The translations under genes and the position numbers were made by a program. Below the pieces are notes generated by a model. The model ran no database searches, was not told where the DNA came from, and saw only the letters and a program-made list of their open reading frames with translations. From positions 1 to 45,224 of the IMG/VR virus record IMGVR_UViG_3300031354_000004: DNA of 45,224 nt. One strand, 5' to 3'. This DNA comes from a virus (lineage: Duplodnaviria > Caudoviricetes). Positions 326-45,097 of the stretch are shown one piece after another (the first letter of the stretch is position 1; each line of letters starts with the position of its first letter).

Positions 326-862
326 ATGTCTGAGAAAAAACTCGAATACATGAAGCAACGGAATGCTTCAGAATATCGAAAAGAACAAGCTTCTGTCGGC
401 TTGCCTGTAAAATCGCAAGCACAAATAAACGCCGGCAAGATTGCCGACTATCGGACGACGGTAAGGATCCGCCCAACGAAGGCTCAGGTCTGGCAGGTCC
501 TAGAATACTGTCGAAAGATGGGTCGAGATCCGGCTGGCCGATCTTTTCAATGGGCTTTCCAGCTCATTATCGACTCTCTGATTATTTCGCGTATCCAAGA
601 CGGTACGTTAAAGCCAATCTCGGAAGAGGCCGCAATAGCGAAGCTTCGTGAATTCAAGTCTGGAGCTCCTGTTGGGGAGGAGTATATCTCCGTAGATAAT
701 TTAGATGCCCTTCGACAGGCGGAAGAAGATACAACACTTCCAGATAATGTAAACGCCTTAGATTTTATCCGAAGTGAACAAGCTGCAGATCAGGATGATT
801 TTGGGGATTTGTTTCCTTATCCATCGGGAGGGAGAGTAGATGATGATGAGGAGGAAGAATGA
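326..862 (+). CDS. Hypothetical protein with acidic C-terminal tail
   Basis: AAGGAG RBS; 178-aa ORF ending DDDEEEE. Confidence 0.8.
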   Translation: MSEKKLEYMKQRNASEYRKEQASVGLPVKSQAQINAGKIADYRTTVRIRPTKAQVWQVLEYCRKMGRDPAGRSFQWAFQLIIDSLIISRIQDGTLKPISEEAAIAKLREFKSGAPVGEEYISVDNLDALRQAEEDTTLPDNVNALDFIRSEQAADQDDFGDLFPYPSGGRVDDDEEEE

Positions 863-2947: not shown

Positions 2948-3130
2948 GGGCGATTATTATAGTAGTGGCAGAAGCGCTTAGTAGAACCTAATTTGCTCCC
3001 TAGGTTCGAAATTCTAAGCGAAAAATAATGCCTGGCTGACATACGATGTCGTAAGGGAAGCTAGCCGCTCTAGCCATCCAGCTTGACGAGGTGCGGGTTC
3101 GAATCCTATCTACTATATAATCGCTCTTAT
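2944..3130 (+). ncRNA. tRNA-like structured RNA with expanded D- and anticodon loops
   Basis: Acceptor-like ATAGTAG(2959-2965)/CTACTAT(3110-3116) extended to about 21 bp; D-stem GCA/TGC; 5-bp TGGCT/AGCCA stem; GGTTCGAATCC T-loop at 3096-3106. Confidence 0.65.
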
Positions 3131-3234: not shown

Positions 3235-3684
3235 ATGAAAGAACAAATCATCGAAGTTGTTGCGAATGCTAAAAAAGGTGAGAAGGAGAGAAGTATCAAA
3301 GTGCCTCTAATGGTTCCGGAAAGCATTAAAGAAGCGGAAGAAATCTTTGGGGAGAAAGTGGTCTTTGATACTTTTAACGCCCAGCTAATTATTAAATTCC
3401 AAGCATTCGTTCGTGGTCAGCTCGCAGCCGAAGACAATGAGACCGGCCTAGTGAAGAACTCAGAAGAGGAAGTCACAGCCGCTGCGGCCGCCTGGAAACT
3501 TACTGGTGGGAACAGGTCTAAATTGTCTACCAAAGATAAACTGGCTAAATTGTTCTCTGGTATGTCTAAAGAAGAAGTCGAAGCTGCCCTGGCCGATCTG
3601 GATGTCGAGGAGCTCGTCGCTTCTCAAGTCGAGGAAGGCGAGGACGAAGACGAAGGTATCAACGAACCTGAAGACTTCGAATAG
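3235..3684 (+). CDS. Hypothetical protein with long acidic C-terminus
   Basis: GGAG RBS; 149 aa; D/E-rich tail. Confidence 0.8.
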   Translation: MKEQIIEVVANAKKGEKERSIKVPLMVPESIKEAEEIFGEKVVFDTFNAQLIIKFQAFVRGQLAAEDNETGLVKNSEEEVTAAAAAWKLTGGNRSKLSTKDKLAKLFSGMSKEEVEAALADLDVEELVASQVEEGEDEDEGINEPEDFE

Positions 3685-32479: not shown

Positions 32480-34180
32480 CTATTGTAATAGGCGTTGAGC
32501 AGGAGCTCCGCCAGATAAACGATTAGCATAATCTTGAACAGACAAAGGCGTCTCCTGTGCCGGAGTCTGCTCAAGAAGGATATCTTCTAAAGATACTCCT
32601 GGAAGCTCACCAAGAAAGTACTTTGTAAGACTGAGATTACTTATCAAAGGATTGTTTTGTAGCCTATCATAATAGGCCATAGCCCGTTTTTCGCGAATCT
32701 CTTTTGTCTCAGGCAGCGCTGAATCAGGATTTATTTTGATCTCATAGTCGCCTTGGCGAAGCATCTTTCCAGTGAAACGTACCCAAACAGCCGCACCCTG
32801 AGGATCAAGCACTTTAATGACTTGTTCCTGGCCCCAATGCCGGAAGATGATACGCATAGTATCTTCCATTACAGATAGATACATATCAGCAAGAATGTCT
32901 CGACGCTCATCCATGCGTAGATCAAGAGCACGAGCTACTTCACGAGTCTCTGTCGCCGTAGGTCCATGAGAAGTCGCCTGGTATTCACCAAAAGCATTAC
33001 GGTTGAAGCCCATAGTCTCACGAATGTCCTGCATTACTTGGAGTTCCATTTTGAAGAGGGCGTCTGGAATATGATCGGTCTCGATGATTTTTACCCCATT
33101 CAGATCTGCGATCTGGACCACGGCACTTACATCCTCACTCAAGAACTTGGCCTCTTGGTCTGGCTCTATAAGTCCGCTTTTTACCAAAAGCTTGACGAGA
33201 GATCTTCTCATATGCCAATGTTGCTTAGTCTTGATCTCATTTAATTGATCTTGGAATTGATGCAAGATAGAGGCATCTGAAACTCCCCAGACAGTAGACA
33301 TATCTGGATTCGGAATATAAAGATACCAAGGGCTCGAATGGTCCGTCTGTAGTTCGTCATCGGCCAGAATCAAAGCCATATCCGATCTATTAGGAGCAAG
33401 CACCATCACTTTTCTATTTCGCCGGTCTCTGATTTCAAGCAATCGAATAGTATCTCGACTGGGCATACTCGAACTGCCCCAAATTACTGGCTCTCCTTCA
33501 AGCTCTCCAAACATATTCTTTTGCTTTGAATGGAGCTTATCAAAGGCATTCTTTGGATATCGAGGGTCTCTTTTTACATCATCCTCATAAAGCGTAAGCC
33601 AATGGGCCTGAAACCAGGCACTTTCTTGATCTATGCAATCTTGTGGAAGTACATAGCTTTTCATATCGGTGATGGCTTGAAACCAAGGCATGTTACTTTC
33701 AAGGCCCATCCGATATTCAAAGCGTCTTCCATACTTATCAATAGGAATCTCTGTCCCACCAGGCTCTGGGGTAGGTGTTCTCTGGGCACCATAACCAAGC
33801 TTGCCAGCCCCTGTCCCAGTGAAAAAAGCTATATTCACGATCCGTTGCATTTGCCGCTTCATGTCCATGGTCTTAGTAAGGGAATTTAATACCCTTTCCA
33901 TAATACGCGCAAGTGCAAGATGTTCAAGCCCCGGCTTTGCTGGAGTTACGCTTATAGATGGATTTCGAAAGTATGTTCTCGGAACCAGTGATCTACACAT
34001 AGTAAAGAACATATTCTTAGTAAAGATTCCCGGACGGAACGCGTTCCGATAGTAGCTCATATATATTGGCCACTTATCCTGACGGGTCTGCACACGGGCA
34101 TAGTTCTCCCCCGCATGGATCTGTTCAATCCACCAGTTTATATTTGGATTTCCTTTATTATCGTATCCCTCAAGACGCAT
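32480..34180 (-). CDS. Portal protein
   Basis: 566 aa directly after TerL (TAATG); GTGAGKLG; WG.S; TATE motif. Confidence 0.8.
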   Translation of the reverse strand: MRLEGYDNKGNPNINWWIEQIHAGENYARVQTRQDKWPIYMSYYRNAFRPGIFTKNMFFTMCRSLVPRTYFRNPSISVTPAKPGLEHLALARIMERVLNSLTKTMDMKRQMQRIVNIAFFTGTGAGKLGYGAQRTPTPEPGGTEIPIDKYGRRFEYRMGLESNMPWFQAITDMKSYVLPQDCIDQESAWFQAHWLTLYEDDVKRDPRYPKNAFDKLHSKQKNMFGELEGEPVIWGSSSMPSRDTIRLLEIRDRRNRKVMVLAPNRSDMALILADDELQTDHSSPWYLYIPNPDMSTVWGVSDASILHQFQDQLNEIKTKQHWHMRRSLVKLLVKSGLIEPDQEAKFLSEDVSAVVQIADLNGVKIIETDHIPDALFKMELQVMQDIRETMGFNRNAFGEYQATSHGPTATETREVARALDLRMDERRDILADMYLSVMEDTMRIIFRHWGQEQVIKVLDPQGAAVWVRFTGKMLRQGDYEIKINPDSALPETKEIREKRAMAYYDRLQNNPLISNLSLTKYFLGELPGVSLEDILLEQTPAQETPLSVQDYANRLSGGAPAQRLLQ

Positions 34181-35865
34181 TACATCTCCAAGAAACTATG
34201 CTGAGGTTGTAGTGGTTGGCCTTCCCAGTCTGAAACAGTCTCCCAACCAGCAGGAAAAGGTGTATCGTGTGTCGGTTCTGTCTGAGTCGGAATCTTAGGT
34301 GCCTGAGCAGCAATAATATATGGTAGTTGCTCAAGCCCTACATAGGCCATACAAAGAGCCATTACATGGTCATCGAAGCAGCCTTCCATTGCCTTAAGGT
34401 CGCCATTGAATGTAGCTATTTCACTCATTAAATCGTCAGAGTAGAAAGAGATTTCTCCTAGAGCGCAATCACGCCGAAGAGCCGAGAAGAACATAGGCTT
34501 ATTTTTCTTCGTTGTCAGAAGCCCTGTACCTGTTACGTTGCTATTTCGACCATCGCTATAGATCATACGGATTGGATAGTTACGGCGCTCATTAAGGGCC
34601 ATCAAAGTAGCTATTCCGTAGTTGTTAGATTCCACGACAAGAAGTGGATAGCAATAGAGATCTTTATTTGGCTGTCTTCGATCATGATAGATCCACTGAA
34701 ACATCTTTCCCAGAGCTTCGATTTCTACTGCCAGCGCATCCGGGGCGATCGTCTTACTTTTATACTCGGCAACCTGTTCGCCCGTCTCATAACAAAGTAC
34801 CTGTATCACACTAGCGTCTTTATCAACACCGGCACCAACATCGACACCAATTGTGTAGTGCATATCCGATCTAGGATAGCCATCAAGAATCCACAGAGTC
34901 TTATCAACTTCTCGCCACCGATTTGTTTGAAAGAAAGCCACTTTATGGAAAAATGAATCTCTCATAGCCATAAAGCACTCACTCAGGGTCATAGGATATT
35001 CCTGCTTAAATAGCTCAATATCCATATCCATCTGACGAATTTTCATCCGTCTCCAAAGTACCTGACCCGGCGTTAGCTTTGGAAACTTCATAAGAAGTTC
35101 CGGCTCTTCAAACTCGAGTGAGACTTCTATCGTACCATGAACCTTAGGATCATAAGGAATTGTATATTCCTCAAATTCATGCCACGGTAGAAAATGAAGC
35201 TGTGCATCATAGGTCATTTCCTGTGCCCTCAAGCAGCTTCTATGATACCAAGTCATTGCACCATTCCCAGTAGACTCACAAAAGATCTCGCCATTCGCAG
35301 GGACCGTCTGAAAAAGAGCCGCAGTCATCGGCTTTGGATCATCCCAGAAGGCTACTTCAGAACAATGTAGATCTGTGATCATGTCACTACGGGCAGCCTC
35401 CGGAGAACCAGCAGTGTAGATAGAGATCGAGGAGTCCGTGTCTGGGAAGGTCAATTCGTTCTTCGTATTGTAATGCAACTCTGGACTCGGCCCCTTCATA
35501 TGAGCAAGGTAGTACTTGACCCGAGCAAGCATCCTCTGAGTAGCAATTGTAGTATGCGCAACTATCCTTACATTTCGATTCCTCATAGCTACAGCCTTGA
35601 CAGTAAACCTCCCAAGGACATACGCCGAAACACCTTCCTGACGAGCCTTCGGGACCCAAAGCCTGATTGGCCATCCCGCTCTCCTTATAAGTTGTATTTT
35701 TGTGTCTAATGAATACTGTGCCGAGTTCAGAATAAAATCAACGTCTTCTGCCTTCTTATTCGCAATCCTCAACGTCTGTTGCATAGCCAGACCCTCTGAG
35801 GTGCCCGTCCAGTGATTTTGTTTCTGAATCTGGGGTAATATCCCTAGAATCTGAGTTTCCGACAT
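34180..35865 (-). CDS. terL: Terminase large subunit (true start may be ATG 35784)
   Basis: F.LN.AQ; KARQEGVS Walker A; LHCSEVAFW Walker B; ESTGNG; IGVDVG..D.S; VESNNYG; DDHVMAL. Confidence 0.92.
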   Translation of the reverse strand: MSETQILGILPQIQKQNHWTGTSEGLAMQQTLRIANKKAEDVDFILNSAQYSLDTKIQLIRRAGWPIRLWVPKARQEGVSAYVLGRFTVKAVAMRNRNVRIVAHTTIATQRMLARVKYYLAHMKGPSPELHYNTKNELTFPDTDSSISIYTAGSPEAARSDMITDLHCSEVAFWDDPKPMTAALFQTVPANGEIFCESTGNGAMTWYHRSCLRAQEMTYDAQLHFLPWHEFEEYTIPYDPKVHGTIEVSLEFEEPELLMKFPKLTPGQVLWRRMKIRQMDMDIELFKQEYPMTLSECFMAMRDSFFHKVAFFQTNRWREVDKTLWILDGYPRSDMHYTIGVDVGAGVDKDASVIQVLCYETGEQVAEYKSKTIAPDALAVEIEALGKMFQWIYHDRRQPNKDLYCYPLLVVESNNYGIATLMALNERRNYPIRMIYSDGRNSNVTGTGLLTTKKNKPMFFSALRRDCALGEISFYSDDLMSEIATFNGDLKAMEGCFDDHVMALCMAYVGLEQLPYIIAAQAPKIPTQTEPTHDTPFPAGWETVSDWEGQPLQPQHSFLEM

Positions 35866-36475
35866 TTATATTTATCTTAGCATCGATGTTTTTTAAAAGC
35901 GAGCTCATAAATTGAGCAGCACTCATATCACCTTCCTTAGGCTTATCTTCTCGCTTCGCAAGGCCTTTTCCATTCAGTCGAAAGATCCGGTCGGCAGTCT
36001 TTATTCGAGTATCCAAATCTACATGCTTTCGAATACCGTCTCGATAGGCCTCTAAGGCAGAGCCCATAAGTGACGAAATGTCTTCATCAAGACTTTCCAT
36101 TAGATATGCCTTTGCTGCGCGGACCCTATGCTGACGAAGCCTCAGATTAATCGCCACCTCAGTCACATGGAAAAACTCAGCAAGCTCTCGAGTCTTCCAG
36201 CCTTGCATATGCAATCGAAGCGTCCTATATTCCATAGGGCTCAGAGCCATCACAGGATTATTATCTACCTCTTCTCGCGACAGGTATATACTATTTGCAT
36301 ACCCTGGATTCGGTCTAGGCTTTCGGCCCCGCTTAGCACCATGAGAAACCGCGGGAAGCATATCTCGAAACACTGCACCAGACAAAATCATCAGCGTGTC
36401 TGGCAACAACTCAAAAGGCCCTACAGCAAAAGGCTCCCCGACTTCCATTTGTTGAATATCACTCATGTTGCCCAT
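35756..36475 (-). CDS. terS: Putative terminase small subunit (HTH)
   Basis: HTH GWKTRELAEFFHVTEVAINLRL; R.KTADRI...G; KINININ; first gene of the late arm, upstream of terL. Confidence 0.65.
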   Translation of the reverse strand: MGNMSDIQQMEVGEPFAVGPFELLPDTLMILSGAVFRDMLPAVSHGAKRGRKPRPNPGYANSIYLSREEVDNNPVMALSPMEYRTLRLHMQGWKTRELAEFFHVTEVAINLRLRQHRVRAAKAYLMESLDEDISSLMGSALEAYRDGIRKHVDLDTRIKTADRIFRLNGKGLAKREDKPKEGDMSAAQFMSSLLKNIDAKININVGNSDSRDITPDSETKSLDGHLRGSGYATDVEDCE

Positions 36476-36497
36476 CCATTGGTCGATTTGTCTCAGT

Positions 36498-36638
36498 TCG
36501 GGAATCGAAGAAGGACAAGGATCCCAAGGCTTCGAGACTCATGTGAGTATCTGTGGGAGAGCACACAGAGAGAGTCTCGAAGCCCGGGGGCTGTTTCAGT
36601 TTGTCTAAGGCGCCTCTTGTTTGGGGCTGGAGCCCCCG
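36498..36638 (-). promoter_or_regulatory. Structured 5' leader of the late operon (three adjacent stems)
   Basis: Inverted repeats 36528-36540/36572-36584 (13 bp), 36585-36592/36631-36638 (8 bp), plus a weaker stem near 36498-36526. Confidence 0.5.
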
Positions 36639-36792
36639 AGAGAGGTGTTTTCTGAATCCTTCTTTGAAATTCATTATTTTTCAGAGTGGAAATTTTTGGT
36701 AGTTAGAAATATGGTCTAAGATACTTGGACCCGCGCACTGAAAAGGGGGGTACAAGTGTTCATAGTTGGGTGAATGTTTGTTCCTTTGAGTT

Positions 36793-36808
36793 TGGCACAC
36801 GGTGTGCA
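36793..36808 (+). promoter_or_regulatory. sigma54-type -24/-12 motif (degenerate)
   Basis: TGGCACACGGTGTGCA; GG-N10-GC. Confidence 0.45.
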
Positions 36809-36812
36809 TGGG

Positions 36813-36828
36813 TGCAAGTGTTGGGCCA
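36813..36828 (-). promoter_or_regulatory. sigma54-type -24/-12 motif
   Basis: TGGCCCAACACTTGCA on the - strand; GG-N10-GC. Confidence 0.55.
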
Positions 36829-36898
36829 CGTTCGGGCATGATTTTGTATTTTGTGTTTTGTATGATGTGGAAAAAAGGTGTATCTTGCGCGCGGAAAA

Positions 36899-36914
36899 TG
36901 GCACGGTATATGTA
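36899..36914 (+). promoter_or_regulatory. sigma54-type motif with perfect -24 and broken -12
   Basis: TGGCACGGTATATGTA (GT in place of GC). Confidence 0.35.
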
Positions 36915-36919
36915 TATGT

Positions 36920-36935
36920 TGCAATTTCCGTGCCA
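36920..36935 (-). promoter_or_regulatory. sigma54 promoter, consensus match, facing the late operon
   Basis: TGGCACGGAAATTGCA matches TGGCACG-N4-TTGCW. Confidence 0.75.
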
Positions 36936-37119
36936 CTTTTGGGCAAGATGGGAGAAATAAATGGCCTGATCCAATCGGGTCTCCGGTTCAAGGGCTCATG
37001 TGATCATGCCAGGGGTGCCCCTAGATCAAAAAATGTTTCAACATCGCAAATCATATTTGAATAAAAAAAAATATATAAGAACATATAGAAACCCCATACA
37101 TATCAAACATATGCATTTA

Positions 37120-37135
37120 TGCAAGTCCCATGCCA
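37120..37135 (-). promoter_or_regulatory. sigma54-type -24/-12 motif
   Basis: TGGCATGGGACTTGCA on the - strand. Confidence 0.6.
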
Positions 37136-37373
37136 TATTAGAAAAGTGAACATTTGGACACCCCAAAAACACGCTTTTTCACAAAAAACCCCATAATTTC
37201 AAACACCTACGCCCGGTGAACATATGGGACCCCCAGCATGAACACATGAGCCCTTGAACCAGGGAACCAAAGACCCAATGGTTCAAAATATGCATTCCAA
37301 GCAGGCCCGGCAGATTCTTCCCAAATGGGCATTTATTGCCGCCAAAACAGGCAAAATATGCCATTTCTCCCAT

Positions 37374-37389
37374 TGGCACACCTTATGCA
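37374..37389 (+). promoter_or_regulatory. sigma54-type -24/-12 motif
   Basis: TGGCACACCTTATGCA. Confidence 0.5.
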
Positions 37390-37463
37390 TTACCTTGGAA
37401 AAAACGCCCAAAAAACTCAAGCATTTCAACGCATTACGAAAAAATGTGTCCGTTTTTGTCCTT

Positions 37464-37479
37464 TGGCACCCACATTGCA
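37464..37479 (+). promoter_or_regulatory. sigma54 promoter facing the early operon (predicted +1 near 37490)
   Basis: TTGGCACCCACATTGCA; a 14-bp leader stem begins 7 nt after the predicted start. Confidence 0.7.
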
Positions 37480-37496
37480 ACATATATACATGACTC

Positions 37497-37589
37497 CAGA
37501 CGGGGATCACATCATACAAGACACCTTATCAAAATCATGCCGTGATCCCTGTCTGTATCTTGTTCATTGAAATGCAATCTTACGATTGC
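37497..37589 (+). promoter_or_regulatory. Early leader: long stem, boxA-like element and small hairpin (nut-like)
   Basis: CAGACGGGGATCAC(37497-37510)/GTGATCCCTGTCTG(37542-37555); TGTTCATTGAAA (37561-37572); GCAATC-TTAC-GATTGC (37574-37589). Confidence 0.5.
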
Positions 37590-37618
37590 CTATCTAATAT
37601 CTTTTTGGGAGAAAAATC

Positions 37619-38203
37619 ATGACTGAAGAAAGTACCCATCTTGCAACATATCCCGCGACGTCTTCGGATGTACCACGGGATGCAAGGACAGAAGATTGCT
37701 ACATCAAGATAGATGTATGCAAAGCATTCAAGTATCAGATCGACATGTCGGCCCAAAAACCAGACGTCTTTCACGCCTGGACCAAAGGCTCAGAATCCTT
37801 GCGAACCCTTGTGGATCATTCGATCCGGATCAAGGGAGCCGACGCACTTCGTGGCTATATGCAGGACGTTTTTGGCGAACCCAACAAAGCGATTCGTGAA
37901 AACTACACAGCCTACGCCGCGCAAATCGGATCCGATCCGGAAAAACTCTCGAAAGTCCGAGAGTACATGATTTCCTGGTGCTGGGAAGGCAAGGTAACAA
38001 AGCCAAAAACCCTGGAAGCCCAACTCGCCGAATGCATCGCAGCACAAGGAAAAATCGTACAAGCTGCAAAAGCTGGCAAGTACGTCACAGCCGACGACAA
38101 GAAGCAAGCCAAAGCCCAACTTACAGCTTTGGTTGACAAACGTGCCGCCCTGGAAACCCAACTCGCCGACCAAGAAACCGATCTGGACGAGCTTTTCGAC
38201 TAA
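37619..38203 (+). CDS. First early gene, hypothetical
   Basis: GGGAG RBS; 194 aa; C-ending codon bias differs from its neighbours. Confidence 0.8.
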   Translation: MTEESTHLATYPATSSDVPRDARTEDCYIKIDVCKAFKYQIDMSAQKPDVFHAWTKGSESLRTLVDHSIRIKGADALRGYMQDVFGEPNKAIRENYTAYAAQIGSDPEKLSKVREYMISWCWEGKVTKPKTLEAQLAECIAAQGKIVQAAKAGKYVTADDKKQAKAQLTALVDKRAALETQLADQETDLDELFD

Positions 38204-39726: not shown

Positions 39727-39775
39727 TCTCTCAGGTTGCACAAAAATTGTGCGGCCTGAGAGGCTTTTCTTTGTT
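39727..39775 (+). terminator. Intrinsic terminator-like hairpin with a competing upstream helix
   Basis: About 16-bp stem 39728-39743/39747-39762 followed by CTTTTCTTTGTT; TGAGAG(39707-39712) can pair with its 5' strand. Confidence 0.6.
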
Positions 39776-44972: not shown

Positions 44973-45055
44973 GGAGAGTTGGCAGAGTGGTTTAATGCGC
45001 CGGGCTTGAAAACCGGTGGCCTTTTGGCCCAAGGGTTCGAATCCCTTACTCTCTT
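44973..45055 (+). tRNA. tRNA-Ser (anticodon UGA)
   Basis: Acceptor GGAGAGT/ACTCTCT; D-arm GCAGAGTGGTTTAATGC; anticodon loop CT-TGA-AA; long variable arm GGCC-TTTT-GGCC; T-arm AAGGG-TTCGAAT-CCCTT; CCA not encoded. Confidence 0.92.
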
Positions 45056-45097
45056 CAGGTAGGCAACGACGATTTACCCTTTTAACGAGGAAAACAA

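Follow-up and report, generated by a model that had tools for sequence, protein, structure and literature searches.

Phages that depend on the RNA polymerase of their host are usually said to begin transcription at sigma-70 promoters, and these fire unaided. A sigma-54 promoter remains closed unless it is acted on by an activator that is driven by ATP. Bacterial sigma-54 promoters, such as nifH, glnHp2, and the M. xanthus NmpR targets, carry TGGCAC and TTGC boxes at a fixed spacing upstream of a gene, in line with the RpoN consensus given as TGGCAC-N5-7-TTGCT (PMC12316311), and NtrC-like activated promoters have tandem upstream dyads (PMC11841059). Among phages, Pseudomonas phage YuA has no RNA polymerase of its own and uses -24/-12 promoters. 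The literature cites it as a rare case of strict dependence on sigma-54 (PMC5053324), and one sigma-54-like start site is reported as mapped (PMC10914365). The three annotated YuA promoters of this type are late and lie dispersed through the late region, where sigma-70 and phage-specific promoters also occur. None of the annotated YuA promoters falls within two mismatches of the consensus used below on the sense strand.

We analyzed a virus record of 45,224 nucleotides, here called the window, which represents a complete, circular assembly with a terminal overlap of 127 nt. Its sites have the same boxes and fixed spacing as the bacterial promoters, agree with the published consensus, and likewise lie upstream of genes. 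Unlike those promoters, they are six within 690 bp, in both orientations and in part face to face, with no linked activator gene and with upstream boxes that are direct repeats lacking a clear dyad; tandem dyads do occur in relatives of the window. Unlike the YuA promoters, they are near-perfect, clustered, and face both arms of the genome including the earliest genes, and the YuA-type pattern of late genes only, beside sigma-70 promoters, was not found. A first-pass annotation of this DNA had regarded a phage program run on sigma-54 as undescribed. That is wrong for the late promoters of YuA (PMC10914365, PMC5053324), so phage use of sigma-54 is already known; what is new here is textbook sites facing both arms. 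Our literature search, whose coverage left out most subscription journals, found no phage with clustered sigma-54 sites of that arrangement.

Genome layout

By family searches, the phage is podovirus-like. The early and replication arm runs on the plus strand from 37619 round to 15806 and includes exonuclease, Sak4-like ATPase, SSB, ParB-methylase, UDG-PolA, and DUF3987 primase/helicase families. The late arm, on the minus strand from 36674 to 15932, holds a probable terS, terL, portal, capsid, tail, and large virion proteins. Between them lies a 1,143-bp intergenic region (36476-37618) with the sigma-54-type array. The first early gene (37619..38203, plus strand) encodes a 194-aa protein without a known family in Pfam, PHROGs, and model searches; its structure model has a pLDDT of 78.9, and a fold search with it gave only generic helical hairpins and nothing informative. 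The late arm begins with a 71-aa ORF (36459..36674, minus strand) present also in the relative L003. The probable small terminase (35756..36475, minus strand) has a helix-turn-helix-like segment and is named from position and family, with no library match. The large terminase (34180..35865, minus strand; phrog_2, E 1e-23) served as the anchor for fetching relatives.

The best match of the window's PolA among named phages is that of Desulfofustis phage LS06-2018-MD01 (OP947158), at 31.6%. This phage has the same two-arm layout and early module, but it differs from the window in having no sigma-54 site cluster. Its host was predicted from CRISPR spacers (PMC10370329). In tblastn, no match was obtained for terminase, portal, or capsid, and therefore MD01 does not identify the host of the window phage. 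The capsid and portal of the window had no match in named phages.

Several features of the early arm are recorded here in their own right. A tRNA-Ser(TGA) lies at 44973-45056 (plus strand). A tRNA-like element at 2959-3116 (plus strand) has complementary 7-bp ends, a T-loop-like GGTTCGAATCC, and about 110 extra bases; it received no ARAGORN or Rfam call, and its folding z is -0.39. The segment 38896-41493 (plus strand) encodes four small, Cys-rich proteins that are related to one another and composed of repeated domains of two types. A strong terminator-like hairpin of 17 pairs at 39727-39763 (plus strand) has no recognizable promoter downstream, which suggests read-through or antitermination.

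The array of sigma-54-type sites

Sites were scored by mismatches to TGGCACG-N4-TTGCW and not by a PWM. In a sigma-54 promoter the GG stands at -25/-24 and the GC at -13/-12, with the start expected some 12 nt beyond the GC. The first-pass annotation had listed seven motifs, six of them with the exact GG-N10-GC spacing, and both statements hold. All seven strings are in place, the coordinates given for the minus-strand copies being the leftmost bases of sites that begin at 36828, 36935, and 37135. The six spaced sites have zero to two mismatches each, and the exception, at 36899..36914 on the plus strand, is a -24 half-site in which the -12 GC is absent. The clustering that was expected from a genome scan against shuffles is also evident. 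All five genome-wide matches to TGGCA-N7-TGC lie inside 36793-37479. At two mismatches or fewer, the intergenic region holds six sites. Its dinucleotide shuffles average 0.087 sites and have at most 3, none of the 1,000 reaching six; the remaining 44 kb of the genome has two sites. At one mismatch or fewer there are three sites versus 0.009 in the shuffles, and the other nine spacer lengths gave zero to two matches each in the intergenic region.

Five of the six sites point into the adjacent arm. Two are early-facing. The proximal early promoter candidate (37464..37479, plus strand, one mismatch) lies 155 bp upstream of the first early gene, with a predicted +1 at 37490. The distal early-facing site (37374..37389, plus strand, two mismatches) follows by 95 bp a degenerate copy, outside the six, at 37279..37294 on the plus strand, which keeps GG-N10-GC with four mismatches and belongs to repeat family D2. 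Three are late-facing. The main late-facing promoter candidate (36920..36935, minus strand) matches the consensus perfectly, and its +1 is predicted at 36909; a distal site (37120..37135, minus strand) has one mismatch and a proximal one (36813..36828, minus strand) has two. The sixth site, backward in orientation, is on the late side and faces the early arm (36793..36808, plus strand, two mismatches). It stands face to face with the 36828 site across 4 bp, so close that joint occupancy should be impossible. The half-site at 36899 lies opposite the 36935 site and overlaps the predicted start of that promoter. The two best sites, correctly described earlier as sharing ATTGCAACATATA, form a 28-nt inverted pair with 82% identity.

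Neither the control region nor the early intergenic gaps up to 15.2 kb gave a sigma-70-type promoter of at least 9/12, and the deficit in the control region is not significant (0 versus a mean of 2.58, fraction 0.08).

Conservation in relatives

The terL alignment fetched 164 loci, of which we retained 57 whose upstream DNA extends for about 1.7 kb or more, leaving out the window's own copies and obvious duplicates. The conservation in related phages that had been anticipated for the motif was found in this set. With a spacer of 4, there are 22 sites at one mismatch or fewer in the 301 kb upstream of terL, against 0, 2, 2, and 2 matches with control spacers of 2, 3, 5, and 6 and one match with the reversed pattern; the 385 kb downstream of terL has two sites. 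The spacer bases vary freely among the relatives' sites. A T stands before TGGCA in 22 of 33 sites, although the search pattern did not demand it, and the extended RpoN consensus likewise has a T at this position. The array is non-random and conserved.

The lineages with the motif have 34-68% terL identity and keep the same 12-base consensus and exact spacing. In a FastTree terL tree of 59 rows, the window belongs to a four-member clade (support 99) whose members all have a late-facing site. Elsewhere on the tree the trait is patchy, with six changes over 33 scored rows (12 positive, 21 negative), the arm junction not being surely in view for every negative row. Matches are concentrated at the arm junction in the near-complete genomes G001, G002, and G003; G006 has no match and G009 has four scattered ones. 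L010 is without the motif despite its closeness to L018 and L137, and four MAG-binned relatives, distant from the window, showed none in their visible part.

Two relatives allow a closer comparison. The window and L003 share both main sites, including the perfect late-facing one, while the intervening region does not align; the 37464 site is retained together with the following ACATATAT.CAT in surroundings that cannot be aligned. L120 differs from the window at 24 of 1,027 positions, one of them inside the sites (in the spacer of the 37135 site) and none in the boxes described below, which is weak evidence since about 1.7 differences would be expected at the 72 consensus positions. The loop of the early leader (37508-37541) matches the late-side segment 36835-36869 in the window and not in L120. 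Because this shared block is present in the window and missing from L120, recent copying between the inverted halves is likely. We had considered the block downstream of both main sites as a functional signal and dropped it, as the early leader of L120 is without it. Shared blocks between the two halves, one of them missing from L120, could also suggest that the array arose by chance clustering or as a by-product of a recent inverted duplication. This origin is very improbable, given that no shuffle reaches the observed count and that the motif persists in relatives whose control regions cannot be aligned. The recurrence of the motif among the 57 loci refutes chance or duplication as the sole cause.

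Sites also stand in front of first genes. A sense site precedes nine of 21 first-gene starts, at a distance of 51-173 bp for the nearest one, and is absent from the other 12, the positive loci among the 21 having been picked after being seen. Sigma-70-type promoters of at least 10/12 are found at three of the 12 starts without a sense site and at three of the nine with one, so replacement of one type by the other is a tendency and not a rule. Strict exclusivity is rejected since both types co-occur, as in L025. The distance from a site to the next gene is not fixed, at about 50-620 bp. The specific spacing, the recurrence of the motif in distant relatives, and its location ahead of first genes give strong support to the first-pass sigma-54 reading, and at the level of sequence alone the sites belong to the sigma-54 promoters.

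Not every site needs to fire. Most of them may be silent, with closed complexes serving as roadblocks, timers, a sink for sigma-54 holoenzyme, or a shield for the genome end while transcription starts elsewhere. The pair at 36793 and 36828 fits such a role, and L018, L137, and L127 have face-to-face sites, with 17-bp tandem sites also occurring among them. L018 has three sites in tandem, and a sigma-70-type promoter separates the site from the gene in L018 and L137, so that in two cases the sites surround a gene with a promoter of its own. Sites on the late side that face the early arm also occur in L018, L137, L127, and L143. However, five relatives (L109, L110, L047, L025, and L089) have one or two sense sites at 51-173 bp before the first gene, the window offers no other recognizable promoter for either arm, and six sites per genome would make a small sink before replication. 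We regard mostly silent sites as a minor possibility.

Other elements and candidate readers of the control region

The control region is roughly symmetric, with the arms of a 43-bp, 84% inverted repeat (I1) on either side of an AT-rich center (37020..37145, 73% AT). The left arm (36977..37019, minus strand), a candidate upstream element, lies 42-84 bp upstream of the 36935 site, and the right arm (37226..37268, plus strand) lies 106-148 bp upstream of the 37374 site. TGAWCAYWTG boxes occur at 36753-36762 and 36997-37006 on the minus strand and at 37147-37156, 37217-37226, and 37239-37248 on the plus strand. All five genome copies of the box fall within 36753..37248, a post hoc result as the motif was derived from the same region. 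The boxes are direct repeats that are not common to L003, and they are candidates for an operator, an enhancer, or an iteron. Together with the 43-bp arms they may provide activator sites. Reading them as GAAC-N4-GTTC was rejected for its weak fit. Sigma-54 promoters commonly, though not always, have an IHF site between enhancer and promoter; two one-mismatch matches to an IHF consensus, scanned with no control, are at 37101 and 37527.

Downstream of the early-facing sites, a hairpin with a 14-bp stem (37497..37555, plus strand; z -3.69) begins 7 nt downstream of the predicted early +1. Its stem is retained in the variant L120 with an exchanged loop, and L003 has a different hairpin in its place. 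The position is no more than consistent with the predicted +1. Before the first late gene there is a C6-T4 run (36741..36750, minus strand). C5-C7 runs, often followed by T's, precede the first late gene in many relatives, whether or not these have sigma-54 sites, and they are possibly a terminase or genome-end signal.

GTGAC-N7-GTCAC dyads stand beside a site in three of the 12 positive control regions (L047, L109, and L127) and in none of 10 negative ones. Such a dyad with a site within 10-40 bp was found in 17 viral stretches (L191-L207), compared with one stretch when the spacer was one base longer. These stretches represent 14 distinct cores in 12 groups, nine of the 14 cores have tandem dyads, and within 1.5 kb they have no detected protein in common with the window's family. 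Tandem dyads are described as the binding pattern of NtrC-family activators (PMC11841059). The recurrence of the dyad with the site in unrelated phages points to a host reader, and the module supports host activators for phages at large, not for the window itself, which has no such dyad even at two mismatches. Searches of 201 and 13 genomes from two phyla gave no instance of this pattern, a result that is uninformative.

As side observations, the tandem dyads often lie 29-30 or 38-40 bp before the sigma-54 site, forming a widespread phage module, and repeated TTGCA-N-TGCAA-like dyads were seen by eye, with no control, near the arm junction of L021, L104, L157, and L047, with or without sigma-54 sites. 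We also considered a PilR-dependent (pilA-type) promoter, for which the upstream consensus in P. aeruginosa is given as TGT-N11-ACA (PMC8035640). It was rejected: TGT-N8-ACA and TGT-N12-ACA are the sole TGT/ACA spacings in the control region of the window, and by inspection the dyad of the relatives gives no N11.

The motif might instead be read by a DNA-binding protein of the phage (the small terminase, the ParB-methylase fusion, or a ribbon-helix-helix protein) in packaging or replication, with only a resemblance to RpoN sites. The array does adjoin terS and the family-wide C-run and surrounds an AT-rich center with repeated boxes, and the phage has a 178-aa early protein with weak ribbon-helix-helix look-alikes, which we take as a lead only. 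Against such a reader, the exact-spacing consensus recurs at 34-68% terL identity in a patchy manner, with L010 lacking it next to L018 and L137, and it pairs with the dyad in phages that share no detected protein with the family. Binding by TerS or ParB in place of sigma-54 had been raised at the outset; homologues of both occur in motif-negative relatives and the motif does not track them, which speaks against it. A phage DNA-binding protein as the reader is quite unlikely. The 178-aa protein (326-862, plus strand) has homologues in G001 and L143 and is possibly a regulator.

Search for a phage-encoded activator

The absence of a GAFTGA protein, a sigma factor, and an RNA polymerase, noted earlier from the letters alone, was upheld by our searches. 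Pfam and PHROGs recognized none of these among 65 window ORFs, nor did NCBIfam among the 46 of them that were searched with it. Sigma54_activat (PF00158) was found in none of 10 virus records, and no GAFTGA-like string is present in the six-frame ORFs of the window. Across 6,886 ORFs from the window plus 166 loci, a GAFTGA-type pattern gave three loose matches, none of them in the window. The only Walker A proteins of the window, the Sak4-like ATPase and the DUF3987 primase/helicase, are family-wide.

The sigma-54 promoters could still be opened by a phage protein without GAFTGA: a virion protein ejected with the DNA for the early promoter and an early product, for example the 194-aa protein, for the late one. 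Most early and internal virion proteins have no family assigned, and a PDB sequence search with the 1499-aa and 662-aa virion proteins found nothing. The window and L003 have their promoters in common but not their upstream boxes, which fits lineage-specific proteins. There is also a proposed example, as a preprint on Htm (Gp204) of an E. coli phage puts forward an AAA+ protein without GAFTGA as a hypothetical sigma-54 partner (bioRxiv 10.64898/2026.10.06.757011). The Htm hypothesis concerns host transcription, and no dedicated AAA+ protein of such a kind was recognized in the window. Other evidence goes against a phage opener. The two Walker A proteins also occur in G006, G007, and MD01, none of which has a site cluster; a homologue of the 194-aa protein was found only in G001 among five other genomes compared, while the sites occur across the tree; and the dyad-plus-site module points to a host reader. 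We consider opening by a phage protein unlikely. The larger proposal, in which the whole lytic program runs on sigma-54 polymerase with the phage's own GAFTGA-less activator of a new class and inward-facing sites time the early-to-late switch, is to be doubted to the same degree.

An unnamed family of 105-180-aa proteins was observed often to be the first early gene in relatives; the window member is at 3235-3684 (plus strand), and others are found in L025, L109, L110, L047, L021, L097, L104, L122, L132, and further loci. Some phages have two paralogues, and the family is built of three strands plus helices. It was rejected as an activator because it occurs with and without sites and its model has no clear fold match, and a relationship to the 194-aa protein is unsupported (hhalign probability 0.2-1.6%).

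Proposed mechanism and significance

Three mechanisms had been proposed for the array: a host activator, a new phage activator, and a sponge or roadblock. The first appears to be the best supported, indirectly, through the relatives and other phages. We somewhat favor the view that the sites are host RpoN promoters that drive both arms with the help of an enhancer-binding protein of the host. Desulfobacteria and Myxococcota are described as rich in activators (PMC12316311), which is compatible with this view but is not evidence for it.

Under host activation, the sigma-54 holoenzyme of the host would form closed complexes on the sites upon phage entry. A host enhancer-binding protein on the upstream repeats would then open the early promoter, with a start near 37490, and later the late promoter, with a start near 36909. 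Mutually exclusive occupancy at the 36793/36828 pair and at the 36899 half-site could help to order early before late transcription. If the physical ends of the genome are in the control region, the late-facing sites might join the late arm only after circularization.

If the first and last genes are both sigma-54-dependent, infection would be tied to a host signaling protein or would need an unknown activator. Relatives that differ in having a sigma-54 or a sigma-70 site in one and the same place can be compared as natural pairs. With its occurrence in 12 groups of other viral contigs, the dyad-plus-promoter module gives a direct handle on which host activator phages borrow, and it may be useful for host prediction of uncultured phages.
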